A DNA stretch of 64,000 bases from an uncultured Actinomycetes bacterium (GCA_963766935.1 CAVYBY010000007.1:3911-67910); one strand, 5' to 3'. Counted from the stretch's first letter, positions 2,948 through 31,835 are shown. Program-made: numbers and translations. The notes: generated by a model from the sequence alone, not told the origin.

Positions 2948-2976
2948 TGCGCGCGATGATGAATGCGCACTGATGC
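2939..2976 (+). repeat. 12-bp direct repeat GCGCACTGATGC at the soxB/yjbR junction
   Basis: Copies at 2939-2950 and 2965-2976, separated by 14 nt. Confidence 0.75.
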
Positions 2977-2980
2977 CTCC

Positions 2981-3322
2981 ATGCAGGCGAGGACCGTCCG
3001 CAAGCTGGCTCTCTCCCTCCCGGGAGCGGAGGAACTGGAGACCTGGGACACCCCGACCTTCCGCGTCCGGAACAAGATCTTCGCGATGTTCGCCGGCGGG
3101 GGACGCGAGGTGTGGGTCAAGTCGATGCACGACGAGCAGCAGGCGCTGATCGCGATGGACCCGGACACGTTCTTCCGCCCGCCGTACGTCGGTCCGAGCG
3201 GCTGGGTCGGCGTGCGGTTCGCAACGGCCGACCGCGACGAGATGCGCGAGCTGATCGTCGAGGCCTGGCGGATGACGGCGACCAAGCAGGCCGTACGGGC
3301 CTTCGACGAGGAGCAGGGCTGA
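2981..3322 (+). CDS. MmcQ/YjbR family putative DNA-binding protein
   Basis: LALSLPGAEE...PTFRVRNKIFA...FFRPPYVGPSGWVGV...LIVEAWRMTA is the typical YjbR signature. The stop overlaps the soxD start (TGATG). Confidence 0.85.
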   Translation: MQARTVRKLALSLPGAEELETWDTPTFRVRNKIFAMFAGGGREVWVKSMHDEQQALIAMDPDTFFRPPYVGPSGWVGVRFATADRDEMRELIVEAWRMTATKQAVRAFDEEQG

Positions 3323-12100: not shown

Positions 12101-12117
12101 GTTGCTCAAGGCGCAAC
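12101..12117. promoter_or_regulatory. Putative operator GTTGC-N7-GCAAC (copy 2), upstream of the dmdA-like gene
   Basis: Perfect inverted arms GTTGCTCAAGGCGCAAC, between the promoter and the start codon. Confidence 0.72.
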
Positions 12118-12189: not shown

Positions 12190-13185
12190 TCAGCCCGAGG
12201 TGTGCTGGTAGGCGACCAGATCGCCGCCGCGCAGAGCGACGATCCATCCCTCGAGCGTTCCCTGCACGTACTCGCTGCCGGGGTTGAAGCACTGGGTCCG
12301 GCGGATCCGGAAGCGGCCGGCCGACTCGTGGATGTGGCCGTGCAATGAGACGGCCGGCTGATAGGCCGTCACGGCCTCGCGGACCGCGACGCTTCCACCC
12401 CCCGTGGTCACGAACCGGCCGGCTTCCCTCACCGGGACCGGGAACCCGCCCGGTTCCTTCGGAGGACCGAGCTTGAGGCAGGTGTCGATGGGGGTGTTCT
12501 TCGGCGGGCAGTGGAAGTTGAAGACGCACCGGCCGACATCGGGGACGCGGGCCACCTCGCGCCGGATCGCTTCCGCGATCTCGCCCTCGCTCGCCTCCCG
12601 CGGGGTGTCCCAGGGCGTGAAGGTGGAGAGACCGACCGTGATCATCGTGTGCTGGTCGTCCAGCTCGACGAGGCGGCCCTCACAGCCGACGACCCGGTCG
12701 CCGTGGTGCCGGTCCAGCGTCTCGAGCACCGACGGCTCGTCGTCGTTCCCGCCGGTCAGGAACATCCGAGCGGGGGTTCCGGCGAGGGTCTCCTCGGCCA
12801 GCTGGATCCACTCGGCGAGGCGCGCGCTGGCGGTCTCGTGGAAGAGGCCCTTGACGGCGAGTGCGTCCGATCTCAGCTCCGCGTACCTGTCCGGTTCCAC
12901 GACGACCCAGTAGAAGCCGGTCCGCTCGATGCTCGCGCGAAACGCCAGGAGCTCGTCCTCGCCTTCGAGGGAGTGCTCCGTGCCCTGGAAGTGAGCGCGA
13001 TAGCCGCCGCTCTTCCTGACGATCGGCACGAGCGCCTTGCCCATCAGGTCCCCACCGAACACCAGCGCGTCGACGCCGTAGAACTTCGCCGCGTTCAGGA
13101 ACTTCCGAAACGCGACCTGCGAACCGTGGATGTCGGCGGCAAAGAAGATGCGGGTTGGCCGAGGTCGCCGACGCCCGAGCGGCAT
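12190..13185 (-). CDS. Icc-related calcineurin-like metallophosphoesterase, paralog 1
   Basis: AADIHGS, GGDLMGK, GGNDDE, FHCPP, HGHIHES, NPGSEY. ATG at 13185. Confidence 0.85.
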   Translation of the reverse strand: MPLGRRRPRPTRIFFAADIHGSQVAFRKFLNAAKFYGVDALVFGGDLMGKALVPIVRKSGGYRAHFQGTEHSLEGEDELLAFRASIERTGFYWVVVEPDRYAELRSDALAVKGLFHETASARLAEWIQLAEETLAGTPARMFLTGGNDDEPSVLETLDRHHGDRVVGCEGRLVELDDQHTMITVGLSTFTPWDTPREASEGEIAEAIRREVARVPDVGRCVFNFHCPPKNTPIDTCLKLGPPKEPGGFPVPVREAGRFVTTGGGSVAVREAVTAYQPAVSLHGHIHESAGRFRIRRTQCFNPGSEYVQGTLEGWIVALRGGDLVAYQHTSG

Positions 13186-13189
13186 GGCC

Positions 13190-14644
13190 TCACCCCAGGT
13201 CGATGACGATCGTCTTGAGCTCGGTGAGCCGCTCCATCGAGAAGCGGCCGCCGACGCGGCCGACGCCGCTTTGCGATCCGGACGCGCCGCCAAAGGGAAG
13301 GTGGGACTCCCAGTAGTTCGTTCCCTCGTTCACGTTGACCCAGCCGGTCCGGACCGCCTCGGCATACCGAAGGCCGCGCCGGAGATCGCGCGTGAACACG
13401 GCCGAAAGCAGCCCGTAGGACGAACGATTGACGAGCTCGATCGCCTCCTGCTCGGACCGGATCGTCGTGATCGGGGCGACCGGCCCGAACGTCTCCTCGC
13501 GCGCGATCTCCATGTCCTCGGTGACCCCGTCGAGCACCGTCGCCTCGAAGAAGAGGTCGCTGCCGTGTTCGGCCGCGCGGTGGCCGCCCGACACGAGCGT
13601 GGCGCCGGCGCCGACGGCCTGCTCGACGTGACGCTGGCTCTTGGCAGCCGTCGGCTCGTTGTTGAGCGGGCCCATCGTGGTGGCCGCATCGAACGGATCG
13701 CCGAGGCGAATCTGCTCGACGGCGGCCGTCAGGGCGGCCAGATAGTCGTCCTTCACGTCCTCGTGCACCAGGATCCGCTCCCCGGCGGTGCAGCTCTGGC
13801 CGGCGTTGAGGAAGCAGGCGACGAGGGTGGCTCCGACGGCGGCGTCCAGGTCGGCGTCCTCGAGCACGACGAGCGGCCCGTTGCCGCCCATCTCGAGCAG
13901 CAGCTCCTTTCCCGCCGCCCGCGCGGCAACCGCGTGGCCGGTGGCGATCGAGCCGATGAACCCGATCGCCTGCGTGCCCGGGTTCGCGGCGATCTCGTCG
14001 CCGACGACCGGGCCGTGACCGGTCACGAGGTTCACGACGCCGGCAGGAAGATCCGCCGCCTCGAGGCACTCGGCGAAGCGGACGGCGCAGACCGCGGTCG
14101 TCGGCGCGGGGACCCACACCACCGCGTTTCCGTATGCGATCGCCGGCGCGAGGATCTCGCCCGGCATTGTGTACGGCCAGTTCCACGGGCTGATGATCGA
14201 GACGATGCCGCGGGGGACGCGCTGCAGCAGCACCCGCTTGTTCGCGTCGATGGACGGCGGAAGGAGTCCCTCCATGCGGGTCGCATCGGCGGCGGCCATG
14301 TCGAAGTAGGCGATCAGCTCCTGGACCTCGTCGCGAGCCTCCGCTTCGAGCGGCTTGCCCTGGTCGAGTGCGAGCGTCGCCGCCAGGTCCTCGCGGCGCG
14401 CGTCGATCGCCTCGGCGATCCGGCGCATCGCGGCGGCCCGGTCGAACGCCGAGCGACTCGCCCAGCCCGGCTGGGCGTCGGCGGCGGCGGCGATCGCCCG
14501 GTGCGCGTCCGCCCGGGAGCCCTGGGCGACGGTCCCGATGACCGCGCCGGTCGAGGGCGAGAACGCCTCGAACGTGGCGCCGTCTTCCGCCGGCACCCAC
14601 GCCCCACCGATCCACAGCCGATGCTCGTCCGCCACGTCGCTCAC
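13190..14644 (-). CDS. NAD(P)-dependent aldehyde dehydrogenase
   Basis: SPWNWP, FIGSIATG, LEMGGNGP (catalytic Glu), NAGQSCTA (catalytic Cys), EETFGPV, PFGGASGSQSG. GTG start at 14644. Confidence 0.93.
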   Translation of the reverse strand: MSDVADEHRLWIGGAWVPAEDGATFEAFSPSTGAVIGTVAQGSRADAHRAIAAAADAQPGWASRSAFDRAAAMRRIAEAIDARREDLAATLALDQGKPLEAEARDEVQELIAYFDMAAADATRMEGLLPPSIDANKRVLLQRVPRGIVSIISPWNWPYTMPGEILAPAIAYGNAVVWVPAPTTAVCAVRFAECLEAADLPAGVVNLVTGHGPVVGDEIAANPGTQAIGFIGSIATGHAVAARAAGKELLLEMGGNGPLVVLEDADLDAAVGATLVACFLNAGQSCTAGERILVHEDVKDDYLAALTAAVEQIRLGDPFDAATTMGPLNNEPTAAKSQRHVEQAVGAGATLVSGGHRAAEHGSDLFFEATVLDGVTEDMEIAREETFGPVAPITTIRSEQEAIELVNRSSYGLLSAVFTRDLRRGLRYAEAVRTGWVNVNEGTNYWESHLPFGGASGSQSGVGRVGGRFSMERLTELKTIVIDLG

Positions 14645-14663
14645 CTTAGGCCGAAACGGCCGA

Positions 14664-14685
14664 GGGGCGGCCCGGAGGCCGCCCC
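14664..14685 (-). terminator. Intra-operon GC stem-loop after the APC permease gene (terminator or mRNA stabiliser)
   Basis: GGGGCGGCC-cgga-GGCCGCCCC, a perfect 9-bp stem. There is no U-tract. Confidence 0.5.
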
Positions 14686-14712
14686 GTCGAACCCGTCGCG
14701 CCGAACCGCGTG

Positions 14713-16326
14713 TTACTCGACCGGGATCTCCTGATAGATGGCTTTCAGGTCGATCCCCTGGCTCTTGCGGTAGATCTTCGCGACCACATAGACGACCACC
14801 GCCAGCAGGTACATCGAGCCCATGAACCACAGCGACGTGGAGTTGTTGACGTAGTACACGTCGTTGGTGAACCACTCGTACAGGTTGAAGCCCAGGAACA
14901 GGGCGCTGATGGTCCCCGTCACCGTGATCAACGGGATCCCGGCGATCTTGTATCGCGCGATCGCGGAGTTCTCGTACAGGTGCTTCTTCCGCCACGGCAG
15001 GATGATCGCCGCGATGGACGTCCCGAAGAACGTCACCGCGATCACGAGCGTCGCATCCAGGATGTACGTGGCGAAGTTGTCCGTGTAGGCGTAGAGCAAA
15101 CCGACGATGAGCGACGGCACCAGCATCAGGATCAGCGCCCAGACCGGGACGTGGCGCTTCTCGGTCACGTCGGCCACCTTCTCCGGCAGGATCCGGTCGA
15201 ACGCCGCGGCGAAGATGACCCGCGTCGACGACAGGAACAGCGTGCCGGCCCACCCGAGGAACCAGGCGCCGAACATCAGCACGAGGATCGCCTGGACCAA
15301 CGCGTTGTGGAAGAAGAAGCTCACGAGGAGCGGCGGATACGACCAGACCGGGACCGTGCCGGTGCCGTTCCAGTAGTCGAGGTTGGCCGCGTTGAAGAAG
15401 TCCCAGCCGAAGAACTTGGACGAGAGCAGCAGGAAGGCGACCGCGACGGCGATCGTGACCCACAGGCCCCACATCATGCCGCTCATGACGCGCTTGAAGT
15501 CGCTCGCGCCGCGGACCTCGCCGTAGAGCGTGGCGCCCCAGTTCGGCCAGAGGATCCAGAAGCACAGGAACGGGATCAGCAGGAGCGAGTCCCCGAGGAA
15601 CGGCGAGAACCCGAGCTTTGCCGGCAACGCTCCGCCGGCCCCGTCGATGATGCCCTGATAGGCGTTGTCGACGCCGAACAGCTTCGAGGACTCCGTGTTG
15701 AAGGCGCTCTCGAAGCCGCTGCGCGACCCGAACAGCATCACGAGGAAGACGATGCCGAGCGCGATCATCCCGACGTAGAAGCAGTACTTCTGGATCTTCG
15801 CGTACCCCTCCATGCCGAGCGAGACGAGCGCGCCGGCCAGAACGACGACCAGGACGATCACCGTGAACAGGCCGATGTCCTTGCCGAGGAAGTCGAGCGC
15901 GCCCTGCCACTTGAGGATGGCGGCGAGAGGCTGCAGCACCTCGACGTTGAAGATGCCGCCGTAGACGGGCGCCCAGTACCACAGGATGAACCACCACCCG
16001 GTGACGGCCAGGACGAACCCGATCCCGCCGCCCAGGATGCGGCTCTGCCAGACGTAGTCGCCTCCGGCGCGCGGCATCACGGAGATGAGACCGGCGTAGG
16101 TGACGACGAGGAAGGACACGAACACGCCGGAGATCAGCAGCGCGGGAAGGACCTGCCCGGTCGTGACGAAGCCGAGCACCGACAGGGCATAGAACAGCCC
16201 GAGCGTCACGAAGTTGATCGACATGAACGAGTAGAGGAACGAGTCGAACTTCGACCAGCCCTTGACCAAGCCGGTCGCCTTGCGCAGGAACAACGTGGGA
16301 GCCTCGCCTACCGCTGCCATCTGCAC
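14713..16326 (-). CDS. APC superfamily amino acid/amine permease
   Basis: FLRKATGLVK at the N-terminus, MPRAGGDYVWQSR, YGEVRGA, RVIFAAAFDRILP, AIYQEIPVE at the C-terminus. About 12 hydrophobic helices. Confidence 0.9.
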   Translation of the reverse strand: MQMAAVGEAPTLFLRKATGLVKGWSKFDSFLYSFMSINFVTLGLFYALSVLGFVTTGQVLPALLISGVFVSFLVVTYAGLISVMPRAGGDYVWQSRILGGGIGFVLAVTGWWFILWYWAPVYGGIFNVEVLQPLAAILKWQGALDFLGKDIGLFTVIVLVVVLAGALVSLGMEGYAKIQKYCFYVGMIALGIVFLVMLFGSRSGFESAFNTESSKLFGVDNAYQGIIDGAGGALPAKLGFSPFLGDSLLLIPFLCFWILWPNWGATLYGEVRGASDFKRVMSGMMWGLWVTIAVAVAFLLLSSKFFGWDFFNAANLDYWNGTGTVPVWSYPPLLVSFFFHNALVQAILVLMFGAWFLGWAGTLFLSSTRVIFAAAFDRILPEKVADVTEKRHVPVWALILMLVPSLIVGLLYAYTDNFATYILDATLVIAVTFFGTSIAAIILPWRKKHLYENSAIARYKIAGIPLITVTGTISALFLGFNLYEWFTNDVYYVNNSTSLWFMGSMYLLAVVVYVVAKIYRKSQGIDLKAIYQEIPVE

Positions 16327-16348
16327 CCCCTCCCGGGTCGGAACGGCC

Positions 16349-17296
16349 TCAGCCGTTCACCAGTTGGTAGTTCTTGATCTTCCCCTTCTTCGGATCGATG
16401 TTCACGATCGCGGCTTGCAGGATGCCCTCTTCGTAGGAGCTGCCGGGGTTGAGCGCGAGGGTCGTCCCGATCCGCGCGGCCCCCTTGCTCTCGTGGATGT
16501 GCCCGTGCAGCGACAACACCGGCTGGAACCGCTGGACGGCTTCCAACACCGACGTCGATCCGACCGGGCCGAGCGCCTGCCCGCCCGACTTGTACGTCAG
16601 GTCGTCGTTGAGCGCCGGCGCGTTGTCGAGCTTCGAGCCGTACGGCGGCGCGTGGAAGTTGAGGATCGTGGTCGCCGGATCGGACGCGTGCTCGAGCGCG
16701 TGCTCGATCCGGGTCGCGATCTCCGGCTCTTCCGCCTCACGGAACGTGTGCCAGGGCGTCGGATTGGTCCAGCCCATCGAGATCATCGTGTAGCCGCCGA
16801 GATCGATCGGGTGGTCCTCGTCGCCGGTCTCAACGACGTTCGCGTGCGTTAGCAGGTCGTCGATCTCGAACATGTCGTCGTTTGCGGGGCAGGCGATCAC
16901 GCGAATCCCGGTGCCGGCCAGCTTGTCCTCGGCCATCGCGATCCACCGCTCGGTCCCCTCGAGCATGACTTCCTTGAAACGCTTGTCGACGAGGTCGGCG
17001 TCCTCCTGCATGGCGCGGTACTCCTCCTCGGAGACCCGGATCGGGTAGTAGCCGCGGTTCATGACGCGTTTTTCGAACTCCGTGATCTCTTCTGAGGTCT
17101 CGAGCGTCTCGCGGAAGTCCTGCAGGGAGGCCTCCCAGGTGCCGTCGGCCCTCTGCACGATGGGCACCATGGCCTTGCCGGTCACGTCGCCGCCCAGGAT
17201 GACCGCGTCTGCCTTGTAGAAGGCCCCCGCGTTGAGGAACTTCCTCCAGCAGATCTCGGACCCGTGCAGGTCCGTCACGAAGAAGAGTTTCAGCAC
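16349..17296 (-). CDS. Icc-related calcineurin-like metallophosphoesterase, paralog 2
   Basis: VTDLHGS, GGDVTGK, PANDD, FHAPP, HGHIHES, NPGSSY. GTG start at 17296. Confidence 0.85.
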   Translation of the reverse strand: MLKLFFVTDLHGSEICWRKFLNAGAFYKADAVILGGDVTGKAMVPIVQRADGTWEASLQDFRETLETSEEITEFEKRVMNRGYYPIRVSEEEYRAMQEDADLVDKRFKEVMLEGTERWIAMAEDKLAGTGIRVIACPANDDMFEIDDLLTHANVVETGDEDHPIDLGGYTMISMGWTNPTPWHTFREAEEPEIATRIEHALEHASDPATTILNFHAPPYGSKLDNAPALNDDLTYKSGGQALGPVGSTSVLEAVQRFQPVLSLHGHIHESKGAARIGTTLALNPGSSYEEGILQAAIVNIDPKKGKIKNYQLVNG

Positions 17297-17352
17297 TCCA
17301 TCCCCACTCGAGGAGCGATGATCGCCCTCACGCCACACGCGCGCAAGGAACG

Positions 17353-17369
17353 GTTGCAGGATCCGCAAC
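17353..17369. promoter_or_regulatory. Putative operator GTTGC-N7-GCAAC (copy 3), between phosphoesterase 2 and betA
   Basis: Perfect inverted arms GTTGCAGGATCCGCAAC in the divergent intergenic region. Confidence 0.72.
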
Positions 17370-17433
17370 ACCGATGCGGCAGTAGCGCCGGGGACGCTCC
17401 CCACGGCGGCCCGCGGTGGTGCAGACTCCGGGC

Positions 17434-19083
17434 GTGAGCGATTCCTACGACGTCGTGATCGTCGGCGGAGGCTCCGCCGGAAGCGTCCTGGCCAACCGAC
17501 TCTCCGCCGACCCGTCGACCACGGTCCTCGTGCTCGAGGCGGGGCGCCCGGACCGGTTGTGGGACGTCTTCATCCACATGCCCGCCGCGCTGACGTTCCC
17601 GATCGGCAGCCGGTTCTACGACTGGAAGTACGAATCCGAGCCCGAGCCGAACATGGGCGGCCGCCGGATCTACCACGCCCGGGGCAAGGTCCTCGGCGGA
17701 TCGAGCAGCATCAACGGGATGATCTTCCAGAGAGGCAATCCGCTCGACTACGAGCGGTGGGCGTCGGCGCCGGGTATGCAGACGTGGGACTACGCCCACT
17801 GCCTGCCGTACTTCAAACGCATGGAGACCTGTCTGGCGGCCGCGCTCGACGATCCGTTCCGCGGCCACTCGGGCCCGCTCGTCCTCGAGCGTGGTCCGGC
17901 GACGAGCCCGTTGTTCGGCGCGTTCTTCGAAGCCGTACAGCAGGCCGGCTTCCGCCTGACCGACGACGTCAACGGCTACCGGCAGGAGGGGTTCGCGCCC
18001 TTCGACCGCAACATCCACCGGGGGCGGCGCCTCTCGGCCGCCCGGGCGTACCTGCACCCCGTCCAATCCCGCCCGAACCTTCACGTGAAGACGCGCGCGT
18101 TCGTCGGCAAGATTCTCTTCCGCGGCAACCGTGCGACGGGCGTCGAGTTCACCCACGGCGGCTCGGAGCACCGGGTCGAGGCCGGCGAGGTCATCCTGTG
18201 CGGCGGAGCGATCAACTCACCCCAGCTGCTTCAGCTCTCGGGCATCGGGAAGGCAGCCGATCTCGAAGCGCTCGGGATCGACGTGGTCGAGAATCTGCCG
18301 GGCGTGGGGGCCAACCTCCAGGACCATCTCGAGGTCTACGTCCAGTACGCGAGCACGCAGCCGGTGTCGGTCGCGCCGTACCTCAAGTGGCGGTACCGGC
18401 CGTGGGTCGGCTTCCGCTGGCTGTTCTTCCGGTCGGGACCGGGCGCGACGAACCACTTCGAGGGCGGCGGGTTCGCGCGCAGCAACGACGAGGTCGCGTA
18501 TCCGAACCTGATGTTCCACTTCCTTCCGATCGCCATCCGCTACGACGGCTCCGCGCCGGCCGGCGACCACGGCTACCAGGTCCACATCGGTCCGATGAAC
18601 TCCGACGCCCGTGGCAGCGTCAAGACCGTCAGCACCGACCCGCACGTGCACCCGGAGCTTCGCTTCAACTACCTCTCGACCGATCAGGATCTTCGCGAGT
18701 GGGTCGAGGCCATCCGGACCGCACGGCTGATCCTCGGTCAGCCGGCATTCGAGCCGTTCAACGGCGGCGAGCTGTCTCCGGGAACCGAGGTCGAAACCGA
18801 CGAGCAGATCCTCGACTGGGTCCGCGCCCAGGGCGAGACGGCGCTGCACCCGTCGTGCACGTGCGCGATGGGGACGGGCCCGGATGCCGTGACCGACCCC
18901 ACCAGCCTTCGCGTGCTCGGCACCGAGGGCCTGCGCGTCGTCGACGCGTCCGCGATGCCGCTGATCACCAACGGCAACATCTACGCGCCGGTGATGATGC
19001 TTGCGGAGAAGGCGGCCGATCTCATCGCCGGCACGACGCCGCTTCCCGTCGAGCCGATCGAGTTCTACCGCCACACCGGCTGA
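17434..19083 (+). CDS. betA: Choline dehydrogenase (GMC oxidoreductase)
   Basis: [81 protein letters not shown]. Confidence 0.9.
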
Positions 19084-19102
19084 CGCGGCCGCGGTCGTCG
19101 GC

Positions 19103-19855
19103 CTAGTGGCCGACCTCTTCGGGCAGCTCGTACCACTTCACGCGGTCGCCGACCTTGGCGCGCAGCTTCCACCTGACCGTCTTCGGCACGGCGTCGCAAT
19201 GCTCGCGGATCGTCTGGATCTGCGCGATCGGATCGTGGCGCCTCGCCTCCGGCACCAGGTCGCGATGCTCGCCGTCGGCGAGCGCCGCCAGCTTGTCCAG
19301 GTTGCCGGTGACGGTTCGCCACCATCCCCAGTCCTCGGCGACGATCCCACCGATACGACCGAGCCCGATCGTCCCGGGCTCGTCGCCGTGCTTCACCTCG
19401 TGCGCCGAGAGCAGGTGGAGCATGTCGTGCACGTCCTTGCGGTTGAGCTCGACGATCTGGAGCTTGGAGAGCAGCAGGTCGGCGACATCGAGGGTGTGGG
19501 GCAGCCGGTCGATCCGGTCCTTGAAGTCGAGGACGTGACACATGTTGAGGCGGTCCATGATGACGTCGACGCTCGTCGCGCCGTCGGCCGTCGTGAAGTA
19601 CATCTGCCGGTCGCCGTGGAGCAGGTTGAACCGCTGGTCGCCGAGGAATCCCTTCTCCCCCAGGAAGTCCATCACGGGCCTCTTCGCCGACGAGACCGAC
19701 GCGAAGTCCATGTCCTGATCGTCGCGGGCGCGGTGCGGGAACAGGGGGCACAGCAGCCGCACCGCCTGGCCGCCGACGAGCTTCAGCGGGATCCCGCGCT
19801 CGTTCGCCTCGCGGACGGTACCTACCGAGGCTTCGAACGCATCGTCGCCGTCCAT
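19103..19855 (-). CDS. Uncharacterised Pol-beta-superfamily nucleotidyltransferase-like protein
   Basis: LVGGQAV-x13-DMDF fits the hG[GS]...DhD pattern, with a likely third Asp in SVDV. Also LLLSKLQIVELNRKD and WYELPEEV. Strong GAGGAG RBS before ATG at 19855. Confidence 0.7.
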   Translation of the reverse strand: MDGDDAFEASVGTVREANERGIPLKLVGGQAVRLLCPLFPHRARDDQDMDFASVSSAKRPVMDFLGEKGFLGDQRFNLLHGDRQMYFTTADGATSVDVIMDRLNMCHVLDFKDRIDRLPHTLDVADLLLSKLQIVELNRKDVHDMLHLLSAHEVKHGDEPGTIGLGRIGGIVAEDWGWWRTVTGNLDKLAALADGEHRDLVPEARRHDPIAQIQTIREHCDAVPKTVRWKLRAKVGDRVKWYELPEEVGH

Positions 19856-19898
19856 CCCGCTCCTCTCCTGCGCCGCGCCGAGCAACCTTACCCCCACC

Positions 19899-21998
19899 TC
19901 AGACGAGCCGCGCCTCCGCCAGCGCGTCGACGGCGACGGCGCCGCGGGCCCCGACGAGCAGGGGGTTTGCCTCGAGCGAGGTCAGCCGGCCGCGAAGGTC
20001 GTGCGCTGCGCGCGAGATGGCGACCACGGCCGACGCGGCGGCCCTCAAGTCGTGACGTCCGGCATCGAGGCCCGCCGACCCGGCCTGCGACTCGACGAGC
20101 TCGAGACCCTGCCGCGGCGACATGGGGCAGGCGACGAACACGGCTTCCCCCTGCTCGGCGAGGGCTCCGCCCGCGCGGATCGTCACGCAGGCGCCGAACC
20201 GCTCGTCGACGACCGCGCCGACCAGCACCTCGTGTCCGCTCGCCATCCGCTGGACCAGAACGCGGGGGCGGGCCGCACCGGCCCGCCTTGCCGCCGCGAG
20301 CACCTCGGCCGCCGCAACCTCGACGTCGGTGGGGGTGCCCAGGTGCAAGCGAACGCCGCCCAGCTTGGCTTTGTGCGGCATCTCCGGCGCCAGCGCCTTG
20401 ACGGCCACCGGGAAGCCGAGCCGCCTGGATGCCTCGGCGGCGGCGGCCGGCGTCGAGGCGATCGCTTCCTTCGGCCGCCGGACTCCGTACAGCTCGAGGA
20501 GCTTCGCCGCGCGGATCTCGTCGACGGGTCCGGATTGCCCGGCGATCAGACGCAGCGCCGCCGGCCGGTTCGGATGCGGCCCGACCGCCGGAACGGCTCG
20601 CGCACGCACACCCTGATAGCGCACGAGCGCGGCGATCGCACCGGTGGCCGCGCGATGCCCCTGGAGAAACGGCAACCGCTCGGCTTTCGTGAACGCCTTG
20701 GCGGCGGGGATGTACGCGAGCGGGCTCATGGCCACACTGGCGAATTGCACGCCCGTTTCGCGGCGCAGCCGCCGGACCGCCTCCAACACCTTGCCGGCCC
20801 ACGGCTGCTCGCCGGCAAGACGCGGCGGGAAGGCGTCGAAGGCCACGAATCCGATCGCCGGGTCTCTCGCCAGGGCGTCGAGCGCCCCCACGAACATCTC
20901 CGTCTCGACCGCGGCCTGACCGGTGACATCGAGCGGGTTGTTCTGCGACGCGAAGTGCGGCAGCACGCGCCGGAGCTTTCGCTTGGTCGCGGCCGAGAAC
21001 TCGGGAAGCCGCAGCCCCTGAGCGCCTGCCGCCTCCGCGAACAGGGTGCAGGCGCCGCCGGATTGCAGCGCCGCGGCGACGCCGTCGGAGCGAACGCGCC
21101 GCGTGAACGAGAGCAGCAGCGCGGCCTCGAACATCGTGACCGGATCCTCGACGAGCACCACACCGCGGCCGCGGAGCCACGCGTCGCGCAGCGCGGTGTT
21201 CCCCGCCAGCGCGCCGGTGTGGGCGACGATCGAACGAAGGGCGGCCTCGCTCCGGCCCTCGGGCGCGCAGATGAGCACGGGCTTGCCCGCCGCCCGGAGC
21301 GCATCCAGTCCCTCACCGATCCGCCCGACATCGCGCATCGTCTCGACGTAGCTCGTGACGACCTTCGTATGGGGGTCGCTCGCCGCCCAGACGAACAGGT
21401 CGCCCAGCCCGAGCACGGCCTCGTTGCCGACGCCGAGGATGATCCGCAGACCGACGCCCCGGTCGGACGCCATCTGGTTCATCGTCCAGGCCACCGTTCC
21501 GCTCTGGGAGATCACGCTGATCGAGCCGGCGACCGGCTCGGGCGGCGGCGTCGTCCCGTACGGCGCGACGTGGTCCACGTAGTTGACGAAGCCCTCGACG
21601 TTCGGGCCGAGCACCGGGATGCGGTTGCGGAGCGCCGCCTGCCGCAGCTCCTCCTGGAGCGCGCGCCCCTCGTCGCCGGCCTCGGCGAACCCCGAGGACA
21701 CGACCATGATCCCCCGGACCTTCCGCGCGCCGCAGTCGTCGATCGACCCCGCGACGACGCGGGCCGGCACCACGAACACGACGAGGTCGACGCCCGGCGG
21801 CAGCTCGCGGATCGAGTGAAGGCACGGGCGGCCCCACACGGTCTCGTACTTCGGGTTGATCGGGTAGAGCTGTCCGGTGAACCCGACGTGGCGAAGCGAC
21901 CGCTCGATCTCCGGCGCCCACGAGTCGGGCGACTCCGACGCGCCGACGACCGCGATCGAGCGCGGCGCGAGGAGGGGTTCGAGGTTCCAGGCCTTCAT
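19899..21998 (-). CDS. NDP-forming acyl-CoA synthetase (acetate-CoA ligase family, fused alpha-beta)
   Basis: APRSIAVVGAS, YPINPK, GPNVEG, SQSG, GVGNEA, AHTGALAG (phospho-His), SQNNPLDVT, PHKAKLGGV. Starts at MKAWNLEP. Confidence 0.88.
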   Translation of the reverse strand: MKAWNLEPLLAPRSIAVVGASESPDSWAPEIERSLRHVGFTGQLYPINPKYETVWGRPCLHSIRELPPGVDLVVFVVPARVVAGSIDDCGARKVRGIMVVSSGFAEAGDEGRALQEELRQAALRNRIPVLGPNVEGFVNYVDHVAPYGTTPPPEPVAGSISVISQSGTVAWTMNQMASDRGVGLRIILGVGNEAVLGLGDLFVWAASDPHTKVVTSYVETMRDVGRIGEGLDALRAAGKPVLICAPEGRSEAALRSIVAHTGALAGNTALRDAWLRGRGVVLVEDPVTMFEAALLLSFTRRVRSDGVAAALQSGGACTLFAEAAGAQGLRLPEFSAATKRKLRRVLPHFASQNNPLDVTGQAAVETEMFVGALDALARDPAIGFVAFDAFPPRLAGEQPWAGKVLEAVRRLRRETGVQFASVAMSPLAYIPAAKAFTKAERLPFLQGHRAATGAIAALVRYQGVRARAVPAVGPHPNRPAALRLIAGQSGPVDEIRAAKLLELYGVRRPKEAIASTPAAAAEASRRLGFPVAVKALAPEMPHKAKLGGVRLHLGTPTDVEVAAAEVLAAARRAGAARPRVLVQRMASGHEVLVGAVVDERFGACVTIRAGGALAEQGEAVFVACPMSPRQGLELVESQAGSAGLDAGRHDLRAAASAVVAISRAAHDLRGRLTSLEANPLLVGARGAVAVDALAEARLV

Positions 21999-22828
21999 GC
22001 GCGGTCGCCGCGGAACTGCGCGTCCCGCCATGCGATCGCCTCTTTCAGCCCGCGCTCCAGCGTGATGCGGCGGAACTCGTCGCGCGCCGGGAGGTTCGCC
22101 GTCTCGATCATGACGTCGAGCTCGATGTTGGCCTCCATCGCCGCGCGGAAGCCGGCCACGTCCCAGGCCCGGTTGAGCGACCGCTTCATCGTCTGGATGA
22201 CGAACGGCTCGTTCTTGGCGATCTCCTCGGCGAGCGCCATGGTCGCCGCATCGAGGTCGTCCCGCGGGACCACCCGGTTGACGAGGCCGAGCCGCAGCGC
22301 CTCGTCGGCGGGAACCCGGTCCTCGCCGGTGAAGATGAGCTCCTTCGCCGAGCGGACCCCGACGACCCACGGTAGGAACATCGAGACCACGCCGGAGCCG
22401 AAGCGCACGTCCACGTAGCCGAACTTCGCGTCGTCGGCCGCGACCGCCAGGTCGCAGGCGAGCATCAGGTCCGTCCCGCCGGCCAGGCAGTAGGAATGGA
22501 CGCTGGCGATCACCGGCTTCGGGTGATCGAGGATCGAGAGCAGCTGCAGGGTGGACGCGCGGAGCCCGGCATGCCACGCGGCCGCATCCAGCACGCCCTC
22601 GCGGGCGTCCTCGTTCAAGTCGTATCCGGCGCAGAACGCCCGGCCCGCACCCCGGAGAATCAGCACGCGGACGCCGTCGTCTCTTGCCGCGTCGTCGAGC
22701 GCCGACCCGAGCTGCCGCATCAGCTCGCTCGAGAGAGCGTTGACCGCGTCGGGCCGGTTGAGCGTGAGCCTGCGGACATACCCGACGTCCTCGACGAGCA
22801 CGACCGGATCGCCGGCTGCCTCACTCAC
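21995..22828 (-). CDS. Enoyl-CoA hydratase/isomerase (crotonase) family protein
   Basis: LTLNRPDAVNALS, FCAGYDL, KPVIASVHSYCLAGG, EALRLGLVNRVVP. The stop overlaps the ligase start (ATGA). Confidence 0.9.
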   Translation of the reverse strand: MSEAAGDPVVLVEDVGYVRRLTLNRPDAVNALSSELMRQLGSALDDAARDDGVRVLILRGAGRAFCAGYDLNEDAREGVLDAAAWHAGLRASTLQLLSILDHPKPVIASVHSYCLAGGTDLMLACDLAVAADDAKFGYVDVRFGSGVVSMFLPWVVGVRSAKELIFTGEDRVPADEALRLGLVNRVVPRDDLDAATMALAEEIAKNEPFVIQTMKRSLNRAWDVAGFRAAMEANIELDVMIETANLPARDEFRRITLERGLKEAIAWRDAQFRGDRA

Positions 22829-22879: not shown

Positions 22880-24127
22880 TCACGGCCCGGACTCGAGGAT
22901 CCCCAGCACCTGCCCCGCCGCACGCCGGCCGCTTCGAAGCGCTCCTTCCATCGTGCCGTGGAAGCCGTCGGGGGCCGTGTGCTCGCCGGCGAACGCGATC
23001 CGGCCGGCGGGCTCGCGAAGCCGCTCGGTCCGGCCGATCGAGGCCGCATCCCAGGCCGAGTAGGCACCCAGGGCATGGGGATCCTCGCCCCAGGACGCCA
23101 CGAGCGGCGCCCCCTCGAGGATCACCTCGGGAACCAGGCCGGCGAGCGCCCCCAGCCAGGCGGACCCGCCCTCGCCGCCGGGTCGCACCCGCGCGAGCGC
23201 CCGCGGCGAGCCGGCGAACGACGTCAGGCACGAGCGTGGGACGCCGCCTTCGCCCAGCGCCGTCCAGCACCAGAACGGCGCGTCCGAGGATTGGACGGCG
23301 AGCGGCTCAACCGGTCCGGCGGTCGCCACGACGAGCTTTGCCGCGACCCCCATCGGGAGCTCGCGCAGCGCCTCGTCCTGGGGAGGCGGAAGCGCCGGCA
23401 AGAAGGTGAGGCCGGCCGCGACCGGCGCCGGCACCGCCACCACGGCGGCGTGGGCCCGGGCACGCTCGGACCCTGCGAGGACCTCGACCCCGGCCGCGTC
23501 CCATTCGATCGAGTCCACCCGCACCCCGAGACGAACCACCGGCAGCGCCGCGGCCATCGCAAAGGCGAGTCGGTCGTTCCCGCCCTCGACGCGGACCGAC
23601 GGCCCCGCTCCGCCCTCGCGCAGCATTCCGTCCATGAGCGCCGTCCGAAGCGCGATCTCGTCGATGTCGAACGCGCACGTCCCCTGGAACCGTGCCCGGA
23701 CGGTCGCGCGCGCCGGCGACGGACCCGGTGTCTCGGCAAGGAGCCGGCCGAGGCTCCACCCGTCGACCTCGCCGGGCGGGAGGCGCTCGGCGAGAGCGCG
23801 CGCCGCCCGGATCAACTCGTCCTGCTCGGCGAGGCGGGATCCCGCCGAGCCACGCCCGTCTCGCCGCGCAAAGTCGACGCCCATCGGCAGGAGGCGGAGC
23901 CCAAAGCGCTCGCAGAGCCCCGTGAACAGCCGGGCGTCGTCGAAGATCCACTCGCCGCCCATCTCGGCCACGGCGCCGTTGGCCAGGTGCGCCGAGCGCA
24001 CGCGGCCGCCGACCCGATCCCGCGACTCGATCACCTCCACGGCGACCCCGGCGTCCCTCAGGACGAGCGCGGCCGAGAGGCCGGCAAGGCCGGCGCCAAT
24101 CACGGTCACGGTGGGAGACGTATTCAT
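22880..24127 (-). CDS. Flavin monoamine oxidase family protein
   Basis: VIGAGLAGLSAA, ESRDRVGGRV, EMGGEW, FAGEHT...GTMEGALRSGRRAA. Confidence 0.88.
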   Translation of the reverse strand: MNTSPTVTVIGAGLAGLSAALVLRDAGVAVEVIESRDRVGGRVRSAHLANGAVAEMGGEWIFDDARLFTGLCERFGLRLLPMGVDFARRDGRGSAGSRLAEQDELIRAARALAERLPPGEVDGWSLGRLLAETPGPSPARATVRARFQGTCAFDIDEIALRTALMDGMLREGGAGPSVRVEGGNDRLAFAMAAALPVVRLGVRVDSIEWDAAGVEVLAGSERARAHAAVVAVPAPVAAGLTFLPALPPPQDEALRELPMGVAAKLVVATAGPVEPLAVQSSDAPFWCWTALGEGGVPRSCLTSFAGSPRALARVRPGGEGGSAWLGALAGLVPEVILEGAPLVASWGEDPHALGAYSAWDAASIGRTERLREPAGRIAFAGEHTAPDGFHGTMEGALRSGRRAAGQVLGILESGP

Positions 24128-28585: not shown

Positions 28586-30037
28586 TCAGTCGGCCAGGTT
28601 CACGTAGACCGACTTGCGCTCGAGGAAGTCCTCGACGCCCTCCTTGCCCAGCTCCCGGCCGATCCCGGACTGCTTGTAGCCGCCCCAGGGCATCTCGGTC
28701 GGCGCCGGCTGCGTGTCGTTGATCCACACGATGCCGGACCGCAGGGCCCGGGCCGTCGTGAGCGCCTTCTTGATGTCGTTGGTCCACACCGCCGCCGCGA
28801 GGCCGTACTCGTTGTCGTTCGACATCGCGACGACGTCCTCGACGGTCGTGAAGGGGATGACGGACATGACCGGGCCGAAGATCTCCTCGCGCGCGATCGT
28901 CGCCGAGTTGTCGACGTCGGCGAAGACGGTCGGCGGCACGAAGTAGCCGTTGGCCAGCTTCGGGTCCGACGGCAGCTCGCCCTGCGCGGCGAGCTTCGCC
29001 TCTGTTTCGCCGATCTCGATGTACCGGGCGACGCGCTCCTGCTGCTCGCGGGAGACGAGCGGGCCCATGGTCGTCGACTCGTCGAGGCCGGCGCCGAGCT
29101 TCACGGACCGGGCGCGCTCGACGATCGCACCGAGCGCGTCGTCGTAGATCGCGCGGTCGACGAAGACCCGCGACCCGGCCGAGCAGATCTCGCCCTGGTT
29201 CCAGAAGACCCCGTTGGCCGACCCCTCGACCGCGGCCTCGAAGTCGGCATCGGCGAAGACGATGTTCGGCGACTTCCCGCCGAGCTCGAGCGTCACGCGC
29301 TTCAGCGTGTCCGCCCCGCTCCGCATGATCATCTTCCCCACCTCGCGAGACCCGGTGAAGCTGACCTTGTCGACGCCGGGGTGCGCCACGAGCGGGGCCC
29401 CGGCCGTTTCGCCGAATCCCGTCAGCACGTGCAGGACGCCCTTGGGCAGACCCGCCTCTTCGAGAATCTTCGGAATCTCCAGACAGGTGAGCGGCGTCTG
29501 CTCCGGCGGCTTGAGGATGAAACAGCATCCCGCGGCGAGCGCGGCCGCGAGCTTCTGCGACGCCATCGCCATGGGGTAGTTCCACGGCGTGATCCCGACG
29601 GCGACTCCCATGGGCTCCTTCCAGACCATGAACATCGCGTCGGCCTCGCCCTGGTGGACGTCGCCGTCGATCTTCGTGGCCCAGCCCCCGTAGTACTCGT
29701 ACATGAAGGCGATCTCGATCAGGTCTTCGCGCGCCTCGCCGATGGGCTTGCCCGAGTCGCGCGACTCCAGCGTGGCAAGACGCTCCGACTCGCGACGGAC
29801 GATCTCGGCCGCACGAAGGAGGATCCGTCCGCGTTCGCGCGAGGGCATGCCGGGCCACCACGTCCCCTCGTCGAAGGTTCGCCGGGCGGCGGCGACCGCC
29901 GCGTCGACGTCGGCGGGCTTCGAGTCGGGCGCGGTCGCGATGACCTCACCGGTCGAAGGGTCGAAGACGTCGAAGCGCGACCCGTCGGCCGCGTCGACCC
30001 AGTTGCCGTCCACGTAGTTCTGCAGAGCGTCTGCCAT
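28586..30037 (-). CDS. Aldehyde dehydrogenase (betaine aldehyde / aminoaldehyde dehydrogenase-like)
   Basis: ITPWNYP, KPPEQTP, FTGSREVG, LELGGKSP, NQGEICSAG, EEIFGPV, WGGYKQSGIGRE. ATG at 30037. Confidence 0.92.
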   Translation of the reverse strand: MADALQNYVDGNWVDAADGSRFDVFDPSTGEVIATAPDSKPADVDAAVAAARRTFDEGTWWPGMPSRERGRILLRAAEIVRRESERLATLESRDSGKPIGEAREDLIEIAFMYEYYGGWATKIDGDVHQGEADAMFMVWKEPMGVAVGITPWNYPMAMASQKLAAALAAGCCFILKPPEQTPLTCLEIPKILEEAGLPKGVLHVLTGFGETAGAPLVAHPGVDKVSFTGSREVGKMIMRSGADTLKRVTLELGGKSPNIVFADADFEAAVEGSANGVFWNQGEICSAGSRVFVDRAIYDDALGAIVERARSVKLGAGLDESTTMGPLVSREQQERVARYIEIGETEAKLAAQGELPSDPKLANGYFVPPTVFADVDNSATIAREEIFGPVMSVIPFTTVEDVVAMSNDNEYGLAAAVWTNDIKKALTTARALRSGIVWINDTQPAPTEMPWGGYKQSGIGRELGKEGVEDFLERKSVYVNLAD

Positions 30038-30130
30038 GGGTTTCTCCTTCGAAAGCGGTTGGATCGGCCGGGTACTCCTGAAGCTCACAGGAAGATCTGA
30101 GGGTATCGCCCCGGCGCGCGGGGCGCACTG

Positions 30131-30943
30131 CTACGACCGAGCGGGCGGTCGCTGCGCGAGACCCCACGCATCGGCGCCACCGTCGACCACGACCGTGGTG
30201 CCGGTGATGTATCCGCCGCCGGCCGACGCGAGAAACGCGATGGTCGCGGCCACCTCATCCGCGGAGCCGGCGCGTCCGGCCGGGACCTCCGCGGCCAGCT
30301 CGCCGACGAGATCCGGACCGCCGTACTGCGCGAGCCCTTCGGTGTCGATCAGCCCGCACGAGACGCATACGGCCCGGATCCCGTACTTCGACCACTCCAG
30401 CGCGATCCCGGCTGCGAAGGTCTCGAGCGCGGAGCGCGCCATCGACGAGTGCACCATCCCCGGGATCCCGCGGCGTGGGCTCAGGCCGACGAACGCGACG
30501 AATCCGCCCCGGTTCGGGATCATCCACCGGGCCGCGACCTGCTGCGTGAGGTACCACGGCGCGTCGACGTTCAGGCGGTGGACGGCGCGCATCCCCTTCA
30601 GCGAGGTCTGCTCCAGCGGAGCCGAGAACTGCCCGCCCGCGTTGTTCACCAGCACGTCGACCGCGGGCCAGCGTCCGGAGACCGCGTCGAGAAAGGCGTC
30701 GACCTGCTCGGGCTCACGAACGTCGCACGGTGCCGCGAGCACGTCTCGCCCTGCCTCCTCCAGCTCGGCCCGCACCGCCTCCAGCGGCTCGGACCGCCGG
30801 CCGCAGATCGCGACGCTCGCTCCCGTCCGGGAGAGCTCGCGGGCCGTCGCTCGGCCGATGCCGGTGCCACCCCCCGTGACGATCGCCACGCGACCGGCAT
30901 TCGCGTCGTCTCGCAGCGGCGATCGGAACGGCTGCTCTACCAT
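30131..30943 (-). CDS. SDR family oxidoreductase
   Basis: VTGGGTGIG, LVNNAGGQF, HSSMAR, YITGTTVVVDGG. Confidence 0.88.
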   Translation of the reverse strand: MVEQPFRSPLRDDANAGRVAIVTGGGTGIGRATARELSRTGASVAICGRRSEPLEAVRAELEEAGRDVLAAPCDVREPEQVDAFLDAVSGRWPAVDVLVNNAGGQFSAPLEQTSLKGMRAVHRLNVDAPWYLTQQVAARWMIPNRGGFVAFVGLSPRRGIPGMVHSSMARSALETFAAGIALEWSKYGIRAVCVSCGLIDTEGLAQYGGPDLVGELAAEVPAGRAGSADEVAATIAFLASAGGGYITGTTVVVDGGADAWGLAQRPPARS

Positions 30944-30953
30944 GCGCCGCAGT

Positions 30954-31835
30954 ATGGCCGAGGAGCTGCTGCCCGGACATCGGCGAGACGTCGAGGGCGC
31001 CGGTGGCGTTCGCCTGTCGGTGAGGGATGTCGAGGGCCCGTCGCCCGGCGCGCCGGCGCTGCTGCTGCACCACGGGCTCGCCTCGTCGCAGCGGATCTGG
31101 GACCTCATGCTCGCGCCGCTGTCGGCTCGCTTTCGCATCGTCACCTATGACGCGCGCGGCCACGGGCTGAGCGAGAAGCCGGCGAGCGGCTTCGGATTCG
31201 ACCACGTCGTCGAGGACCTGCTCGCGGTCGTGCGCGCGACCCGGCTTCGGCGCCCGGTCGTGGTCGGGCACTCGTGGGGAGCGTCGGTGGCCCTCGCCGC
31301 CGTGGCCCGGCACCCCCGGTCGCTTGCCGGCGCCGTGCTCGTCGACGGTGGCCTCGTGTCGCTTGCCTCTGACGGCGCCACCTGGGCCGAGACGAAAGCG
31401 CGGCTCGCCCCGCCGCCGCTCGCGGGGATGCCGCTCGAGGAGTTCCTTGGGCACGTGCGCCGGCACCTCGGCGCCGACCTCGACGTCACGCCGGAGATCG
31501 AGGCGGTCACCCGGTCGCTCGTTCGGGTGGACGGGAGGGGGGGCATCCATCCGCGGCTGTCCCGCGCCAACCATTTCCGAATCCTGCATGCCATTTGGCG
31601 TCAGAACCCGGCCGCGCTCCTGCCCTCGCTCCGAACCCCGGCACTCGCGATCCTCGCAACCGGCGACGGCCCGCCCACCGCCTGGGCCCGCCGGATCGCC
31701 GCCGAGGCGAAGCGCGCCGCGCCGGACGGGCTGCTGCGCGTGTCGTTCATGCGAGGGATCCACGATCTCCCGCTGCAGCACCCGGCAGACCTGGCGCGAG
31801 GGATCGAACGTTTCGCGTCCGAGATCGTAGGCTGA
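30954..31835 (+). CDS. Alpha/beta fold hydrolase
   Basis: LHHGLAS, YDARGHGLS, GHSWG nucleophile elbow, GIHDLPL (His). Confidence 0.88.
   Translation: MAEELLPGHRRDVEGAGGVRLSVRDVEGPSPGAPALLLHHGLASSQRIWDLMLAPLSARFRIVTYDARGHGLSEKPASGFGFDHVVEDLLAVVRATRLRRPVVVGHSWGASVALAAVARHPRSLAGAVLVDGGLVSLASDGATWAETKARLAPPPLAGMPLEEFLGHVRRHLGADLDVTPEIEAVTRSLVRVDGRGGIHPRLSRANHFRILHAIWRQNPAALLPSLRTPALAILATGDGPPTAWARRIAAEAKRAAPDGLLRVSFMRGIHDLPLQHPADLARGIERFASEIVG

Follow-up and report, generated by a model that had tools for sequence, protein, structure and literature searches.

The 64,000-nucleotide stretch of DNA from an uncultured Actinomycetes bacterium that was analyzed here (GCA_963766935.1 CAVYBY010000007.1:3911-67910; hereafter the window) carries, at positions 12190-19855, genes for a nucleotidyltransferase-fold protein (NT), two metallophosphoesterases (MPE1 and MPE2), an APC permease, an aldehyde dehydrogenase (ALDH), and the choline dehydrogenase BetA. 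At a G+C content of about 70%, long spurious open reading frames (ORFs) are plentiful, and true genes were picked by combining codon-position GC with domain scans; these genes have a G+C content at third codon positions (GC3) of 0.85-0.96. Four genes form a tightly spaced run on the minus strand, which comprises MPE2 (16349-17296; 315 aa, GTG start), the APC permease (14713-16326; 537 aa; Pfam AA_permease_2, 60.3 bits against a cut-off of 27), ALDH (13190 to ~14599; ~469 aa, start approximate; Pfam Aldedh, 492 bits) and, at the end of the operon, MPE1 (12190-13185; 331 aa). The gaps within this run amount to 22 nt between MPE2 and the permease, ~100 nt between the permease and ALDH, and 4 nt between ALDH and MPE1. 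The betA gene (17416-19083, plus strand; NCBIfam TIGR01810, 806 bits against a cut-off of 732.1) is divergent from MPE2, at a distance of 119 nt, and convergent with NT, at a distance of 19 nt. NT itself lies on the minus strand (19103-19855; 250 aa; GC3 0.93), and homologues place its start at the Met codon at 19855 and not at the GTG at 19897. An initial annotation of this DNA had described these genes at these coordinates, the tight minus-strand run, and the NTase-like gene located upstream on the same strand behind an oppositely oriented betA, and the ORF list, codon-position GC, and domain scans agree with it on all of these points.

To follow the distribution of these genes, 301 genomes sampled evenly across the phylum were each searched with MPE2, NT, and the permease. 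A strong MPE match was obtained in 41 genomes, an NT match in 42, and a match to the permease subfamily (E <= 1e-15) in 40. NT is present in all 41 genomes with an MPE, and the one further NT genome carries a stop-containing remnant. Likewise, NT is present in 39 of the 40 permease genomes; the remaining one is an assembly of 57% completeness in which a contig end carries a fragment. Fisher tests of co-occurrence gave p values of ~6e-50 and ~3e-44, which ignore kinship and hence overstate independence; the positive genomes cover at least nine families. Matches to the permease subfamily sit beside MPE and NT, and essentially none was seen alone in the 301-genome search. Adjacency was read by hand from the match coordinates. 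An MPE gene lies within 200 bp of NT on the same strand at 44 of 54 NT loci and within 6 kb at a further seven, three of which, the window included, have betA inserted between the two genes. The three loci where MPE is missing are all fragments or remnants.

When about 100 loci were mapped, drawn from public assemblies and from a set with a single representative genome for each species, the gene order was NT-MPE-APC, or APC-MPE-NT in one clade, where the permease is too divergent for tblastn and was confirmed with Pfam. MPE is present in ~90% of 80 representative loci, and the phyletic pattern looks vertical rather than patchy or mobile. By way of a distant NT homologue, the search also reached metagenome-assembled genomes (MAGs) of Bathyarchaeia with 31% GC, in which an MPE (46% identity to MPE2), NT (35%), and permease (42%) are clustered. 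In one of these (GCA_038856055.1, locus L112:2560-8431), the cluster comprises genes for a CBS protein, a choline-kinase-fold kinase, an MttB-family methyltransferase, MPE, NT, and the APC permease. Co-localization of NTase, MPE, and APC permease across taxa had been set in advance as the check on the initial annotation, and it was found both across Actinomycetota and in Bathyarchaeia. NT, MPE2, and the APC permease thus constitute one conserved three-gene module that is common to Actinomycetota and Bathyarchaeia. The trio is inherited together, and hence the three proteins almost certainly work together. The gene set had been called undescribed, and this description stands, as our literature searches found no account of the module, of the function of TT1561 or aq_1956 (the closest folds to MPE2, see below), or of the function of PF14907 (a family related to NT).

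NT has no sequence match in Pfam, NCBIfam, or the PDB. Its AlphaFold2 model has a predicted local distance difference test score (pLDDT) of 96.1, and when this model was compared with the PDB using Foldseek, the 21 best matches and most of the first 40 were Pol-beta-type nucleotidyltransferases (NTases). These matches include MenT1, 5uvd (an uncharacterised fungal NTase-like protein), ANT(2'')-Ia, LnuA, JHP933, TUT7/Cid1, and FKRP. Among 81 representatives of the NT family, residues G28, D48, D50, K131, Q133, D141, D144, W176, W229, R232, G236, and W241 are invariant, whereas the third Asp, D97, and G29 are each kept in at least 90%. The hG[GS] and DxD motifs, the third carboxylate, and the core fold by which the Pol-beta NTase superfamily is recognized are all found in NT, and the earlier call of an NTase fold is supported by the model quality, the fold matches, and the invariant G28, D48, and D50. 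Sub-threshold matches to PF14907 (NTP_transf_5; Pfam cut-off 31.2 bits) were obtained for 54 of the 81 homologues, with a best E value of 2.1e-8; some homologues carry a precomputed PF14907 match, and the window NT itself is unmatched. The ANT(2'') Pfam model is matched by 4 of the 81. Judging from these residues and the model, NT is a catalytically intact-looking, but very distant, branch of the minimal Pol-beta NTases, and it is a distant sister group of PF14907 rather than a member, as well as distant kin of the MenT/AbiEii and ANT(2'')/LnuA minimal NTases. The family is large, with 4,870 clusters at 90% identity, all labeled hypothetical, and 1,946 representatives at 50% identity.

Two unusual architectures of NT were observed. 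On a soil metagenome contig (L109:2-2205), MPE is followed by an NT that is fused to two phosphoribosyltransferase-type domains, one of which has a phosphoribosyl pyrophosphate (PRPP) motif VLLVDDISDTGKT. At locus L110:3548-5547, which lies downstream of a radical SAM gene, an NT with an N-terminal MarR/IclR-type helix-turn-helix (HTH) domain precedes a second NT paralogue.

MPE1 and MPE2 are 37% identical along their full length. Both are very divergent members of their superfamily, as indicated by scores barely at the threshold of the Pfam Metallophos model (PF00149; cut-off 21.5 bits), MPE1 falling below it with 21.0 bits and MPE2 equaling it with 21.5 bits. MPE2 scores 19.1 bits against PF14582 (Metallophos_3; cut-off 28.2), and many of its homologues have a precomputed match to that model. 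Compared with the PDB, the AlphaFold2 model of MPE2 (pLDDT 93) had 37 matches (E <= 1e-3), which with few exceptions have the metallophosphoesterase fold; the closest are aq_1956 (2yvt) and TT1561 (1uf3), followed by SbcD/Mre11, MPPED2, and Rv0805. The MPE family comprises more than 7400 homologues of MPE2, many of them more than 80% identical, and between genera MPE2 is 78-84% identical, which makes it at least as well conserved as BetA.

In an alignment of 36 MPE family members, D9/H11, G36-D37-x-x-G40-K41, N139-D140-D141, H215, and H264-G265-H266-x-H268 are invariant, and the C-terminal metal motif reads H-G-H-x-H-E. In MPE2, the successive motifs are DLH, GDVTGK, ANDD, H, and HGHIH. The motifs that had been reported for the two proteins (DxH, GDxxGK, GNDD or ANDD, H, and GHxH) are indeed present. 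The metal-ligand motifs of PF00149 are found in MPE1 and MPE2, but the GNH[DE] of motif III is not: its Asn is kept, and its His is replaced by an invariant Asp in all 36 sequences, giving GNDD in MPE1 and ANDD in MPE2. Both MPEs are members of the superfamily by fold, with a variant active site. Motif III also lacks the His in LpxH (GNRD) and in YfcE and MJ0936 (GNCD), so the label "non-canonical" is fair, although not unique to these proteins.

The permease belongs to the APC superfamily by both its Pfam score and its canonical motifs, with conserved P85, G88-G89-D90-Y91, E270, R369, and D377 (P-x-x-G-G-x-Y, G-x-E, and S-R-...-D); a conserved G-S/T-G in the first transmembrane helix was not found in the permease alignment. 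A search of the permease for a modifiable residue showed that, beyond the canonical APC motifs, only an N-terminal R-x-x-[ST]-G-L is conserved. In the 2.59-Mb source genome, no BCCT-family transporter was found, and its two OpuAC-type binding proteins are encoded at a large distance from the island, on contigs C12 and C3.

The initial annotation had proposed that five genes, namely NT, both MPEs, the permease, and ALDH, form one pathway. The linkage of NT, one MPE, and the permease agrees with this proposal, but MPE1 turned out to be lineage-specific, and ALDH follows betA. A tree of the MPE family contains a large clade that comprises MPE2 and all modules located beside betA and an operon-type ALDH, with members from Acidimicrobiales, Streptosporangiaceae, Nocardiopsis, Trebonia, and Thermoleophilia. 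MPE1 belongs to a separate, "orphan" clade of operon-terminal genes that is sister (support 100/99) to MPEs that have an NT and permease of their own. Genes of the MPE1 type were seen only in loci of the same type as that in the window, and MPE1 is a recruited extra paralogue of one lineage. Most loci have a single MPE, hence an MPE1:MPE2 heterodimer cannot be general.

A second copy of the module is present in the same genome (G000 contig C3:552630-555779, corresponding to L009:7630-10779) and consists of a permease, an MPE, and an NT remnant. Its MPE is 50% identical to MPE1 and groups among the MPEs of the MPE1 sister clade. The NT remnant has lost the catalytic N-terminal half, and the neighboring genes (dimethylglycine dehydrogenase (DMGDH)-like, DeoR, and ETF) are truncated; a gene for a kinase with a choline-kinase/APH fold is also present. 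These defects rule out an independent intact module, and the copy looks like a decaying paralogous locus near the end of the contig, in which MPE and permease are still adjacent.

Most loci in the MPE2 clade have betA next to the trio. ALDH is syntenic with betA in many loci, and it is missing from many module loci. The operon ALDH is a generic member of its family. Against the betaine-aldehyde dehydrogenase (BADH) model TIGR01804, it scores 371 bits, compared with a cut-off of 668.6, and all NCBIfam equivalog models score below their cut-offs. The nearest solved structure is a succinate-semialdehyde dehydrogenase (SSADH; 336 bits), with BADHs following at ~270-284 bits. A BetB role of this enzyme is suggested only by its synteny with betA. 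A second ALDH gene in the window (28586-30130), which adjoins SDR and alpha/beta hydrolase genes in a block at 28586-31835, scores 556.5 bits on the BADH model, below the cut-off but above the 371 bits of the operon enzyme, and this gene may encode the real betaine-aldehyde dehydrogenase.

Downstream of MPE1 lie genes for GcvT/DmdA-like, MTHFR-like, and DMGDH-type proteins and for sarcosine oxidase (soxB and soxA), as well as an IclR regulator gene (809-1684). The region had been labeled a methylamine catabolic island, a description that is too loose given the soxB, soxA, DMGDH, GcvT/DmdA-like, and MTHFR-like genes; the island is of the choline/glycine betaine/dimethylglycine/sarcosine type. 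It also includes a YjbR-family ORF (2963-3322, plus strand), which is flanked by a sarcosine oxidase beta-like (DAO) gene and a long soxA-type gene. Directly upstream of NT, on the same strand, are genes that were assigned using Pfam and NCBIfam to an ADP-forming acyl-CoA synthetase (19899-21980), an enoyl-CoA hydratase (21995-22780), and a flavin amine oxidase (22880-24127). Many relatives have this block, as the hydratase with or without the other two genes, in synteny with the module; one possibility is that it provides a CoA-dependent side pathway of the betaine or carnitine type.

The 119-nt intergenic region between the divergent betA and MPE2 genes contains an exact palindrome, GTTGC-N7-GCAAC (17353-17369), which is a candidate operator. 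A pattern search of the window returned only one other exact copy, at 12101-12117, between MPE1 and the GcvT/DmdA-like gene. When one mismatch was allowed, four sites were found against 1.4 expected, and hence only the two exact intergenic copies carry weight. The two copies lie in the promoter regions of the betA/MPE2 divergent pair and of the GcvT/DmdA-like gene. They would fit a shared repressor, for which the IclR regulator encoded at 809-1684 is a candidate. A scan for promoters and terminators found none.

The genes that accompany the module give an indication of its solute. Neighbors in the MPE2 clade include betA, ALDH, and often DMGDH, sarcosine oxidase, and MttB/corrinoid/RACo genes. 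An MttB-family methyltransferase gene adjoins the module in Bathyarchaeia and on one metagenome contig. The MPE1-like clade has DMGDH-like fusion dehydrogenases as neighbors, and DAO and GCV_T genes also occur near modules. A small-molecule kinase with a choline-kinase/APH fold recurs beside the module, namely on contig C3 of the source genome, at locus L018, and in Bathyarchaeia; GntI is the curated model that it matches best, with a score below the cut-off. The 118 neighboring genes of the most divergent modules are otherwise mixed and include amidohydrolases, DAO oxidases, SDRs, and dihydroxy-acid dehydratases. Since the trio recurs beside quaternary-amine genes (betA, MttB, and DMGDH-like), the solute would most likely be a choline-type quaternary or N-methylated amino alcohol, or its phosphoester, with specificity probably shifted in other clades. 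For the window, we infer from the synteny with betA and ALDH that the module takes up and first processes the solute of the choline-to-glycine-betaine branch of the island.

Both NT and the MPE look catalytically competent in their alignments and models, and we tentatively propose that nucleotidyl transfer to an imported solute is followed by its release by the phosphoesterase. In this scheme, the permease would import the solute, and NT would transfer a nucleoside monophosphate (NMP) from a nucleoside triphosphate (NTP) to a hydroxyl (or phosphate) of the solute, yielding a charged nucleotide ester that would be captured in the cytoplasm. The MPE, with its dinuclear metal site intact and its general-acid His replaced by Asp, would then hydrolyze this phosphodiester or pyrophosphate and deliver choline to BetA and ALDH; MPE1, as an extra paralogue, would have a related esterase role. 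We lean toward a small-molecule role of NT because of its ANT(2'')-Ia/LnuA fold matches, the recurring kinase, and the NT-phosphoribosyltransferase fusion. A chemical pairing of NT and MPE is suggested by the fact that NTases make phosphodiesters, while Rv0805, MPPED2, and SbcD, which are fold neighbors of the MPEs, are phosphodiesterases or nucleases. The initial annotation had also offered a version in which the MPEs would eliminate the NTase product to an aldehyde for ALDH, and this version finds no support, as betA already supplies the aldehyde and ALDH is missing from many module loci.

Several points weigh against capture by nucleotidylation followed by MPE-catalyzed release. Oxidation by BetA already makes choline uptake irreversible, so that an ATP-costly capture is not obviously needed; we know of no NMP-choline metabolite; and choline itself is suggested as the solute by synteny only. 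The top fold match of NT is MenT1, a tRNA-modifying toxin, and the TM-scores of the NT matches are low (0.36-0.58). Variant loci bear on the mechanism as well. At L075:7998-11002, and also at L080, L090, and L091, the MPE is replaced by an amidohydrolase of the "putative cyclase" type (PF04199). At L117:3823-7852, a Phospholipase-B-like (PF04916) Ntn hydrolase accompanies the permease and NT, without an MPE, and on one contig NT adjoins a CN-hydrolase, without a permease. Hydrolases that cleave C-N bonds cannot stand in for a phosphodiesterase, so even these few variants matter, and they fit better with a hydrolase that is a solute-specific enzyme and an NT that is the partner of the permease than with a strict sequence of NT and then MPE. 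At L075, the PF04199 gene encodes a hydrolase of the kynurenine-formamidase type and is translationally coupled to NT, with an overlap of 8 nt at the NT stop codon; the permease there belongs to the module subfamily. A 307-aa protein encoded upstream of NT at this locus was considered as a cryptic MPE and ruled out (hhalign probability 0.2).

A variable hydrolase is best explained by phosphoester scavenging, along the lines of the release of choline or ethanolamine from phosphoesters that the initial annotation had offered. Here, the permease would import phosphocholine, glycerophosphocholine, or phosphoethanolamine, MPE2 and MPE1 would be cytoplasmic di- and monoesterases, and NT would have a separate, permease-linked role. 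The swapping of hydrolase families in distant lineages (cyclase-type, PLB-like, and CN-hydrolase) is what would be expected if the hydrolase is solute-specific. In the window, the MPE2-APC-ALDH-MPE1 run divergent from betA holds everything needed to convert phosphocholine to betaine, two MPE paralogues would suit a diesterase and a monoesterase, and HAD and PTP phosphatases show that Asp can take the part of the general acid. However, scavenging leaves the near-universal NT unexplained, and most loci have a single MPE. In addition, the kinase-fold genes beside some modules would oppose a phosphatase, and we know of no APC-family importer of phosphoesters. Taken together, we regard this explanation as unlikely.

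The strict tie to one permease subfamily would be explained by a switch of the reversible AMPylation/deAMPylation kind that the initial annotation had offered. In it, NT would place a nucleotide on the permease, or on a protein that binds it, and the MPE would take it off again, so that uptake would be gated. The co-inheritance of NT and MPE with one specific permease subfamily is strict and independent of the catabolic genes around them, and MenT1, the best fold match of NT, modifies a macromolecule. The N-terminal MarR/IclR-type HTH domain of some NT homologues and the stand-alone CBS proteins near the archaeal module also point toward regulation. On the other hand, the permease has no extra soluble domain, and outside the APC motifs its only conserved cytoplasmic Ser, Thr, or Tyr is the [ST] of R-x-x-[ST]-G-L, a motif situated where one is generally conserved in APC carriers. 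An eraser would be missing from the variants that lack an MPE, and the 250-aa NT shows no evident sensor domain. Such a switch therefore seems rather unlikely to us.

By analogy with the control of osmolyte transporters by c-di-AMP, NT might instead make, and the MPE degrade, a private signaling nucleotide that controls the transporter. An NTase paired with a phosphodiesterase follows the logic of a synthase and its phosphodiesterase, the fold neighbors of the MPEs include the cyclic-nucleotide phosphodiesterases Rv0805 and MPPED2, and CBS proteins are encoded nearby in archaeal loci. We nevertheless consider this improbable: NT resembles minimal MenT/ANT-type enzymes and not cyclases of the cGAS/DncV type, the permease has no receptor domain, and several modules coexist in one genome, which would cause cross-talk. 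Finally, a toxin-antitoxin or anti-phage pair of a MenT/AbiEii-like NTase toxin and an MPE partner, which would agree with MenT1 as top fold match of NT and with weak matches of the MPEs to the PADLOC candidate family PDC-S10 (34 and 22 bits), is highly improbable and was rejected, as NT and the permease have no PADLOC match, NT has no match in curated Pfam (DUF1814/AbiEii, PF08843, included), the genes sit in conserved catabolic operons beside a dedicated permease with MPE and permease and no antitoxin as neighbors, purifying selection is strong (MPE2 being 78-84% identical between genera), and the phyletic pattern looks vertical, not patchy or mobile.

Nucleotidyl transfer to the solute and subsequent release by the MPE, the scheme that we favor, may also be seen as one form of a broader idea, in which transport is coupled to nucleotide chemistry and an APC carrier needs a dedicated NTase and phosphoesterase. 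Either the solute would be captured as a nucleotide ester, or the carrier would be switched by reversible nucleotidylylation. The former could be viewed as a nucleotidylylation counterpart of group translocation, and the module would be old enough to be common to Actinomycetota and Bathyarchaeia. This broader idea is possible, but in our judgment doubtful.

In soil, choline and glycine betaine rank among the major currencies of carbon, nitrogen, and osmolytes. The organisms that carry the module are abundant and mostly uncultured soil Actinomycetota, in which choline would be routed via a permease subfamily that is tied to two enzymes without assigned function. Solving the module would assign a function to two large families of "hypothetical proteins" and provide the first clue to what the TT1561/aq_1956 branch of metallophosphoesterases does, and it could possibly reveal a new coupling of nucleotide chemistry to secondary transport. 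If plain phosphocholine scavenging were true, the outcome would be a new uptake route for phosphoesters and a new family of phosphocholine esterases.

Known systems resemble individual parts of the module. Like NT, ANT(2'')-Ia and LnuA combine a minimal Pol-beta NTase core with a helical C-terminal domain (for LnuA, the TM-score is 0.58 on target), and their adenylylation of hydroxyl groups on cationic small molecules is the kind of reaction proposed here for NT. NT differs from them in that it has only 11-14% identity, no resistance context, and a Trp-rich C-terminal half with the invariant W176, W229, and W241. MenT1 (8an4), of the MenT/AbiEii (DUF1814) family, is the best Foldseek match of NT (E 2.8e-4), and the K-L-Q-...-K-D-x-x-D motif of NT resembles the NTP-binding motifs of that family. 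In contrast to MenT/AbiEii proteins, to which its TM-scores are 0.36-0.46, NT has no antitoxin-type neighbor and no PADLOC match, and it is part of a conserved catabolic operon with a permease. For MPE2, the closest folds are TT1561 (1uf3) and aq_1956 (2yvt), with E values of 5.7e-11 and 1.5e-8, TM-scores of 0.68-0.72 on target, and faint sequence matches. Both are structural-genomics proteins without known function, hence no function can be transferred from them to MPE2. Furthermore, MPE2 is longer (315 aa compared with 225-260 aa), with additional strands and helices that separate motif II from motif III.

At the level of gene sets, GlnD/GlnK/AmtB and GlnE, which control a transporter and glutamine synthetase, respectively, by nucleotidylylation, share with the module a carrier that is genetically tied to an NTase and a nucleotide-removing hydrolase, but this is an analogy of logic only, as the module has no PII protein and its eraser would be an MPE, not an HD domain or a second NTase domain. 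The lic system of pneumococcus and Haemophilus (LicB permease, LicA kinase, LicC cytidylyltransferase, LicD NTase-fold transferase, and Pce esterase) assembles similar parts around one quaternary amine. Its kinase is comparable to the choline-kinase-fold enzyme that occurs in only some module loci, and FKRP, a LicD-like enzyme, is among the weak fold matches of NT. Unlike lic, the module has no LicC-type enzyme, no LicD Pfam match, an esterase of another fold, and catabolic neighbors (betA, MttB, and DMGDH). Phosphocholine decoration of the lic type was rejected, given these neighbors and the lack of LicC and LicD Pfam matches in any module protein. A loose analogue is provided by acetate permease operons with a DUF294 NTase and an exonuclease, which our literature search did not retrieve. 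The module is a catabolic uptake operon built from known enzyme superfamilies, the combination of which is new to the literature searched.

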